Assembly (NCBI RefSeq): GCF_013167455.1
Contig: NZ_CP038328.1
DNA length: 64,000 nucleotides
Direction: 5' to 3' (one strand)
Origin: Escherichia coli O157:H7
Lineage (GTDB): Bacteria > Pseudomonadota > Gammaproteobacteria > Enterobacterales > Enterobacteriaceae
A program made the position numbers and the translations under genes. The notes under the pieces are model-generated. The model worked only from the letters and a program-made list of their open reading frames with translations. It did no database searches and was not told where the DNA came from. Positions 37,234-38,228 of the stretch are shown one piece after another. Positions within the stretch are counted from its first letter, which is position 1, and each line of letters opens with the position of its first letter.

Positions 37234-37382
37234 AAAGTGAGCCAGTCAAATGGAAGGTATCGTTAAACTCACCGGTAGTGTCAGTGGGTCGTCTGAGACG
37301 CCTGCATGAGTTATCAGAGCCATCAGTAGTTAACTGGTGGCTTTTTTATTGTTGTCAGCTTCCGGATAACGGGAGACGGGGT

Positions 37383-37598
37383 ATGTACCAGATGGAAAAA
37401 ATCACAACGGGTGTGTCATACACCACGTCAGCGGTGGGGACGGGATACTGGTTACTGCAGCTGCTGGACAAAGTCTCTCCGTCCCAGTGGGTGGCGATAG
37501 GCGTGCTGGGGAGTCTGCTGTTTGGGCTGCTGACATATCTGACGAACCTGTATTTCAAGATTAAAGAAGACCGGCGTAAGGCGGCGCGGGGAGAGTAA
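37383..37598 (+). CDS. Class II holin (Stx-phage S type), dual-start MYQM
   Basis: 71-aa [32 protein letters not shown]... with two TM segments and charged C-terminus; the ORF-track start at 37278 is probably an extension. Confidence 0.75.
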
Positions 37599-37602
37599 AG
37601 TG

Positions 37603-37947
37603 ATGAAGAAAAAATACGAACTGGTTGTTAAAGGGATAAATAATTACCCGGATAAGATTACTGTTACTGTGGCACTGGAAATTGGTGGGTATCCGTCACT
37701 GTTGTTGCCAGATGTGGCGATTAGTCTTGACCGTACTGAAGGTGCCACGCTGGAGTTTTACGAAGCTGAGGCGAAAAAGCAGGCGAAGCAGTTTTTCATG
37801 GATGTTGCTGCCGGGTTATGTGAAGGGGATGGTCCGTTACCGGAAAAGCGTCCCGTAATTTTAGAGGCGCAGGATGTGTTGATAACCTACAGAGGAAAAC
37901 TACCGGGAATAATTACGGGTTCTCTGAAGACTCCACCGCTGGCCTGA
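37603..37947 (+). CDS. Hypothetical 114-aa protein between holin and endolysin
   Basis: ATG 5 nt after the holin stop; no recognisable motif. Confidence 0.45.
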   Translation: MKKKYELVVKGINNYPDKITVTVALEIGGYPSLLLPDVAISLDRTEGATLEFYEAEAKKQAKQFFMDVAAGLCEGDGPLPEKRPVILEAQDVLITYRGKLPGIITGSLKTPPLA

Positions 37948-37997
37948 AGACTTAACATATCCAGGGATTTGAAATCGATAAACCCTGATAAATATCC

Positions 37998-38228
37998 ATG
38001 AACGCAAAAATCAGATACGGCCTGTCGGCTGCCGTTCTGGCGCTGATTGGTGCAGGGGCGTCTGCGCCTGAAATCCTCGACCAGTTTCTGGATGAAAAGG
38101 AAGGTAACCACACCACAGCATACCGTGATGGTGCGGGTATCTGGACCATCTGCCGTGGAGCCACCCGGGTGGATGGTAAGCCTGTGATTCCTGGCATGAA
38201 GCTGTCGAAGGGTAAGCGTACAGCCTGA
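37998..38228 (+). pseudogene. Phage lysozyme (GH24 endolysin), N-terminal ~70 aa only, interrupted by IS66-family element
   Basis: MNAKIRYGLSAAVLALIGAGASA signal/SAR-like N-terminus and catalytic E...D...T region EGNHTTAYRDGAGIWTICRGAT; the reading frame runs into the GTAAGCG IS terminus at 38212. Confidence 0.7.

Follow-up and report, generated by a model that had tools for sequence, protein, structure and literature searches.

Remnant of a pinholin lysis cassette, with a truncated endolysin gene and a retained YdfR-family gene, in prophage Sp17 of Escherichia coli O157:H7

In the pinholin pathway of phage lysis, the pinholin depolarises the inner membrane, upon which a membrane-tethered SAR endolysin is released and activated, and spanins then break the outer membrane. 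Phage 21 encodes an intact SAR endolysin (R21) alongside an S gene with two products, the holin S21-68 and the antiholin S21-71. The holins of Stx phages have likewise been described as phage 21-family pinholins that are paired with SAR endolysins (PMC10462455; PMC9636201). In the Stx1 phage YYZ-2008, the lysis genes are arranged as gp43 (holin), gp44 (YdfR family), gp45 (lysozyme, 177 aa), gp46 (Ant) and gp47 (Rz), and are followed by the genes from terminase through tail fibre, NleG and DinI. The Qin prophage of E. coli K-12 holds an uninterrupted cassette of the same type, essQ-ydfR-rrrQ-rzpQ, in the order of class II holin, YdfR-family gene, lysozyme and spanin.

The stretch analysed here (the window; 64 kb of E. 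coli O157:H7, contig NZ_CP038328.1) is collinear with strain Sakai (NC_002695.2, ~3.458-3.522 Mb, reverse strand) at 99.98% identity, and the Sakai annotation describes the locus as 'prophage Sp17; lambda-like phage', ending at ssrA. The Sakai genes ECs_3495-ECs_3497, together with the elements listed there as ISEc8 partial and IS1203/IS629, represent the same locus with the same genes at ~100% identity, and the three junctions discussed below and the right attachment site at ssrA are identical in the two strains. The window's strain differs from Sakai in a 1.9-kb deletion over the left Sp17 boundary and in its VNTR copy numbers, neither of which affects the lysis region. Asadulghani et al. 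(2009) described Sp17 as severely degraded and as consisting of two tandem remnants, Sp17a and Sp17b (PMC2669165). In that work lysis was scored 'D' (defective), every other late function was absent, including packaging and all of morphogenesis, as were the repressor, excision and replication functions, and neither excision nor packaging was observed (PMC2669165). The endolysin stump, the partial ISEc8 and IS1203 are thus already present in the Sakai annotation, and the lysis defect of Sp17 is already published. We consider it very probable that the region described here represents what is left, after decay, of the late operon in the lambdoid part of Sp17. A first-pass annotation of the window had deduced from the interrupted endolysin gene that the prophage is lysis-defective and cryptic; it is both, but the endolysin cut is not the sole cause, as the cryptic state is overdetermined (PMC2669165).

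The late operon retains its upstream components. The late antiterminator Q (ECs_3501; 33100..33723, plus strand) is full length at 207 aa (PF03589 Antiterm, E 4e-58; also so named in the Sakai annotation), and a NanS-p-type sialate O-acetylesterase of 617 aa (ECs_3498; 35380..37233, plus strand) is intact and matches PF03629 (SASA), PF08410 and PF20350, its domain content being SASA plus DUF6645. The earlier impression that Q and NanS-p are intact is borne out by these Pfam matches to two full-length products. In YYZ-2008 the position equivalent to that of NanS-p is held by gp42, also a SASA esterase. Between Q and NanS-p, at the position occupied by stx in YYZ-2008, lies a predicted membrane protein of 247 aa (33976-34719) which has no match in Pfam and whose PHROG matches are all of unknown function. 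A small gene follows at 34810-35139 for which the annotations conflict, Sakai having a minus-strand ORF of 109 aa and PGAP a plus-strand DUF3927 ORF. Elsewhere in Sp17, Pfam scans recovered integrases, AlpA, NinG, a phosphatase, Q and IS remnants.

Downstream of NanS-p, a YdfR-family gene stands between a class II holin gene and a lysozyme gene, just as it does in Qin and in YYZ-2008. The holin (ECs_3497; 37383..37598, plus strand) belongs to the phage 21 S family, with matches to the PHROG holin families and a score of 112.6 bits (cut-off 26; E 8.5e-33) against PF04971, 'Bacteriophage P21 holin S'; it is 80% identical to the Qin holin and 96% identical to that of YYZ-2008. By family membership it is predicted to be a pinholin, forming small depolarising channels in the membrane. 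The first-pass annotation began this gene at 37278, which is just the first GTG past an upstream stop; the gene itself starts at 37383, the position used for ECs_3497 in Sakai, and the other coordinates of that annotation proved correct. From that ATG the N-terminus reads MYQMEKITT, and the codons ATG TAC CAG ATG (37383-37394, MYQM) would permit a product of 71 aa with Met1 as the start, or one of 68 aa with Met4.

The proposed dual start therefore stands as far as its form is concerned, with two in-frame Met codons three codons apart, but the Met-Tyr-Gln extension that they delimit has no basic residue. The window holin shares with S21 the PF04971 family, Met at positions 1 and 4 and a charged C-terminal tail. 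The antiholin behaviour of S21-71 derives from the extra positive charge of the long form (PMC9636201), contributed by a Lys in its extension, whereas the extension found here contains neither Lys nor Arg and so lacks the charge associated with an antiholin. Two starts are also present in the Qin holin (MKSM); YYZ-2008, in contrast, has ATA CAT CAG ATG and consequently a single start at Met4. A small predicted hairpin overlaps the ribosome-binding site of the holin, and its fold is no better than that of shuffled sequence (z-score -0.05). The dual-start motif is accordingly present in form, and any antiholin function of the longer product is putative.

The next gene (ECs_3496; 37603..37947, plus strand) begins 4 nt past the holin stop and encodes 114 aa; the Sakai annotation lists its product as a hypothetical protein. 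It had been set down as an uncharacterised ORF, a description that does not survive family assignment, as the protein belongs to the DUF1327 family (named YdfR at NCBI), the standard middle gene of such cassettes, and interaction data exist for the K-12 homologue (PMC13232886). The match to PF07041 (DUF1327) is full length, covering residues 1-112 with 156.8 bits (cut-off 25; E 1.7e-46), that to phrog_406 has an E value of 1.2e-64, and the product is 99% identical to the YdfR-family gp44 of YYZ-2008. The full-length Pfam match and the identity to gp44 also dispose of the notion that the ORF is a frame artefact; it is, on these comparisons, a genuine conserved gene. Relatives fall into 282 clusters among 5.8 billion proteins, and those with a named source are all from Escherichia or Shigella. 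A further 537 relatives are found in IMG/VR. When 80 of the IMG/VR loci were examined, the gene immediately preceding encoded a holin in 79 of 79, and in 71 of 76 a full-length lysozyme gene followed within 200 nt, although all 80 are at least 96% identical to the query and hence are not independent samples.

Within the family it is the N-terminal domain that is conserved. The 114-aa protein is 47% identical to K-12 YdfR (103 aa) across residues 1-74, while the C-terminal thirds of the two proteins are unrelated, and the confidently folded domain in a model of the 114-aa protein is the part that matches those K-12 residues. Longer family members of 162-183 aa add a C-terminal extension, which in P0111, P0104 and P0022 contains ...TALRSEKDDIESPIEKLE... 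as part of its sequence. By eye, the 50-nt spacer that follows the 114-aa ORF (37945-37997) resembles the beginning of such an extension, a likeness which suggests that the short form may be a truncated derivative of the longer ones.

YdfR/DUF1327 proteins occur in the lysis cassettes of many Stx and lambdoid phages, and their role has been addressed only by a report from 2026 on RNase E binding. In that study residues 1-72 of K-12 YdfR sufficed to bind the catalytic half of RNase E in a two-hybrid assay, and the full-length protein co-purified RNase E residues 1-598, as well as RNA, in affinity chromatography; few transcripts were altered upon its overproduction (PMC13232886). By analogy with this homologue, the 114-aa protein is most likely a cytoplasmic accessory protein of the late phase which binds RNase E and/or RNA, and probably not an effector of lysis; we hold this assignment with low confidence, the link to RNase E coming from one paper and a homologue of 47% identity. 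A more general speculation is that YdfR-family proteins might constitute an unrecognised class of phage-encoded RNase E modulators within pinholin cassettes. Their function may be relevant to when late genes are expressed and when toxin is released.

The third gene of the cassette is the 5' stump of a phage 21-type SAR endolysin of the GH24 family (ECs_3495; 37998..38211, plus strand), identified by tblastn to YYZ-2008 gp45 and by PF00959. Native sequence extends over 71 of 177 codons plus 1 nt, to a last base at 38211, and so agrees with the earlier reading, in which the lysozyme frame ran into a GTAAGCG terminus at 38212 after about 70 codons. The ORF itself (37998-38228) comprises 76 aa, reading on into ISEc8 before the stop at 38228. 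Alignment with an intact relative, which had been put forward as a check, gives the same picture: of the 177-aa YYZ-2008 lysozyme only residues 1-73 are matched, by residues 1-73 of the ORF at 97% identity (tblastn). The match to PF00959 is confined to profile positions 2-38 of 125, such that the lysozyme domain is incomplete. Sakai calls the stump 'phage endolysin' (231 bp) and PGAP a 'glycoside hydrolase family protein, missing C-terminus'.

What has been retained of the endolysin is its N-terminal membrane segment and the positions E35, D44 and T50. Residues 8-23 of the stump (GLSAAVLALIGAGASA) are Gly, Ala or Ser at 11 of 16 positions and make up a weakly hydrophobic membrane segment. From residue 9 onwards, and thus with the N-terminal segment included, the intact homologue can be aligned with both R21 (3hde) and RrrD (4zpu), and E35, D44 and T50 stand in register with the EG...D...WT motif of 3hde (Glu, 8 residues, Asp, 5 residues, Thr), which we take to be the catalytic triad of R21. 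As the holin is of the phage 21 family and the endolysin homologue aligns to R21, the cassette can be assigned to the pinholin/SAR-endolysin pathway. In contrast to phage 21, with its intact R21, the window retains a 40% stump of the endolysin, and spanins are absent. The C-terminal 106 residues have been lost, and with this lobe gone the stump is presumably inactive.

The sequence that interrupts the endolysin gene is the left part of ISEc8, an IS66-family element (38212..39486, plus strand; 'ISEc8 partial' in Sakai), the left terminal repeat of which starts at 38212 with GTAAGCGTACAGCC... (GTAAGCG...). It carries tnpA and tnpB (PF01527 and PF05717) and the first part of tnpC (a stump with LZ_Tnp_IS66), and it corresponds to nt 1-1275 of the 2442-bp element, with 99.9% identity to the complete copy on pO157. 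That complete copy carries the expected 8-bp target duplication; in the 64-kb window neither the right end of ISEc8 nor the 8-bp duplication is present, nor is there any other ISEc8 sequence. Inside tnpC, and in opposite orientation to ISEc8, which it cuts after nt 1275, lies a complete IS629/IS1203 of the IS3 family (39487..40796, minus strand, 1310 bp), as read from the sequence and supported by the Sakai and PGAP annotations and by Pfam (rve and HTH_Tnp_1). Its termini are TGAACCGCCCCGG, with both terminal repeats present, and its transposase is frameshifted, annotated by PGAP as a programmed frameshift. IS629 borders on ISEc8 to its left and on a tail-fibre gene to its right; the flanking trinucleotides are AAC and GAT, and hence the short target duplication that a simple insertion should leave is absent.

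To the right of IS629 are the last 53 codons and stop of a side tail-fibre gene (40797..40958, plus strand; PGAP 'missing N-terminus'), which match PF06820 at profile positions 23-64 of 64 (E 1.9e-22) and form the right edge of the deletion. An ORF for an 89-aa tail-fibre C-terminal domain follows (ECs_3489; 40960..41229, plus strand; PF06820, E 1e-34; also in the Sakai annotation), and 3' of this the order is NleG6-3' (pseudogene), espW, nleG8-2, espM2, dinI and the right attachment site at ssrA. The extent of the loss can be gauged against YYZ-2008, with which the window shares gene order. Window positions 37389-38211, which span the holin and ydfR genes and R as far as codon 71, correspond to YYZ-2008 positions 23917-24739 at 98.5% DNA identity, and 40795-41813, the tail-fibre end and NleG region, to 50552-51571 at 98.8%. 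Relative to the Stx1 phage, 25,812 bp are missing, a scale set by a relative of 98.5-98.8% identity rather than by the true ancestor. The lost interval is retained in YYZ-2008, where the lysozyme is complete, Ant and Rz are present and the packaging and morphogenesis genes account for 25.8 kb; it comprises the remainder of R, Ant, Rz, HNH, terminase, capsid and portal, together with tail, tape measure, J, Lom and the greater part of the side tail fibre.

These breakpoints bear upon the simplest account of the locus, namely that a single IS66-family insertion into the endolysin gene rendered an otherwise complete prophage lysis-defective. ISEc8 does start inside R, at exactly 38212, and the spanin gene is absent downstream, as such an account would have it. 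However, just 1275 of 2442 bp of ISEc8 remain, followed by IS629 and then by a tail-fibre gene of which only the 3' end is left; the window contains neither the remainder of R nor Ant, Rz, terminase or the head and tail genes; and Sp17 additionally lacks repressor, excision and replication functions. As a complete account of the lesion a single insertion is therefore refuted, and we judge it very unlikely. The earlier statement that the cassette was cut by an IS66-family element is right as to the element and its position, and understates a larger IS-associated loss of ~25.8 kb.

No compensating genes were found. With the YYZ-2008 proteins as tblastn queries, R gave no second match in the 64-kb window, and Ant, Rz, TerS and TerL gave none, and Pfam scans of the remaining Sp17 ORFs revealed no other wall-hydrolase domain. 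The failure of Rz to find a match in the window is in keeping with the first-pass remark that no spanin genes follow. As there is no intact endolysin elsewhere on Sp17, the lysis defect stands. This absence of other lysis and morphogenesis genes, like the gene identities and the breakpoints, is a matter of direct observation. Given the genes that remain, Sp17 would be unable to degrade peptidoglycan, to disrupt the outer membrane or to make particles.

Taken together with the decayed late operon reading, the arrangement can be accommodated by a history in three steps. The ancestral cassette would have been carried on a Q-dependent late transcript with NanS-p, pinholin S, the YdfR-family protein, SAR endolysin R, Ant and the Rz/Rz1 spanins. 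ISEc8 would first have entered R after codon 71, and IS629 would subsequently have inserted into tnpC of ISEc8. A deletion adjoining IS629, or recombination between two IS629 copies, could then have removed everything from nt 1276 of ISEc8 up to the 53 codons that now remain of the side tail-fibre gene, some 25.8 kb on the scale of YYZ-2008. A search for the precursor was made among 5,426 complete E. coli genomes with a synthetic 160-bp probe in which the right end of ISEc8 was joined to the remaining part of R through the expected 8-bp duplication (GTCGAAGG), and this junction gave no single-piece match. Since the precursor junction is absent from these genomes, the order of insertion followed by deletion is one that we infer rather than demonstrate. 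Eight matches which did cover the probe were rejected as independent ISEc8 insertions elsewhere in lysis cassettes. Two candidate intermediates were also rejected, that of strain I2 being an unrelated complete ISEc8 upstream of a holin and that of F6321 an unrelated IS629/ISEc8 cluster beside a toxin-like gene.

The derived junctions, by contrast with the precursor, are widespread. Among the 5,426 complete E. coli genomes, 282 carry the R::ISEc8 junction, at least 181 the ISEc8::IS629 junction, at least 202 the IS629::tail-fibre junction and at least 180 the entire 3.35-kb arrangement, the last three counts being lower bounds. Of the full-junction matches listed, those with a serotype label are all O157:H7, and several are unlabelled. 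The Sp17 configuration is fixed across the lineage.

Such prevalence invites the question of whether the remnant might be a selected, domesticated module, transcribed late under its own Q or that of a co-resident Stx or lambdoid prophage, and with the benefit lying in the esterase, in extra holin dosage or in a suicide or abortive response. The reading frames of Q, NanS-p, holin and ydfR are uninterrupted, the configuration is common to at least 180-282 genomes, and several Sp17 genes, the effector genes espM2, nleG8-2 and espW among them, respond to an SOS-inducing antibiotic (PMC5931665). Nevertheless, these genomes represent a young clone at ~100% identity, in which uninterrupted ORFs are to be expected without selection; there are 16-27 matching places per listed O157 record, and with so many further cassette copies in each genome the Sp17 copy is redundant; and the up-regulated Sp17 genes that were named are effectors rather than lysis genes (PMC5931665). 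Domestication therefore appears to us a distinctly improbable explanation, and we infer instead that the holin and ydfR genes of the decayed operon persist by recency and not by selection. We would assign an equally slight chance to the related proposition that Q, NanS-p, pinholin and YdfR form a trans-activatable late operon which answers the Q of co-resident or superinfecting lambdoid phages. Were it true, such activation would yield pinholin and RNase E-binding YdfR without lysis, leading to premature membrane collapse, which could alter the burst timing of Stx phages or serve as an abortive response. Finally, IS629 and ISEc8 are multicopy in O157 and such repeats are classic sites of misassembly, but the idea that the truncation arose from a collapse or misjoin at IS copies is next to impossible in the face of identical junctions in hundreds of independently finished genomes, Sakai and EDL933 among them.

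Read as a decayed late operon, the lysis locus of Sp17 adds one step to the decay by insertion sequences that is well described for the prophages of O157:H7, and Sp17 now persists solely to carry NanS-p and the effector genes espW, nleG8-2 and espM2. Beyond its correct annotation the locus matters little.

ISEc8 has also entered homologous cassettes independently of Sp17. In O157:H7 FRIK944 (L092, 862-3656) and in several other O157 genomes a complete, independent copy interrupts the ydfR-family gene of a different prophage, and another is found just upstream of the holin in strain I2 (L007, 4000-6450); with Sp17, this amounts to three different ISEc8 sites within ~1 kb of the homologous cassette.

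At the opposite end of Sp17, at window position 22291, between the stretch at 18327-22397 and the first Sp17 genes, 1,922 bp are absent relative to Sakai. The gap takes ~750 bp from the 3' end of the ypjA/ehaD autotransporter gene, together with the left boundary of Sp17 and the greater part of ECs_3514, and since it removes the left attachment site the prophage is further immobilised. Its junction was seen in only 4 of the 5,426 complete genomes, for example in O157:H7 ECP19-598. Two perfect hexanucleotide arrays are also present in Sp17. One, (GCCAGA) x30.7 at 29499-29682, is located within an ORF of 432 aa (28480-29778) and has a copy number unlike that of Sakai; the other, (TATTTC) x11.8 at 31024-31094, sits beside an IS30 remnant. 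Both look like VNTR typing loci.
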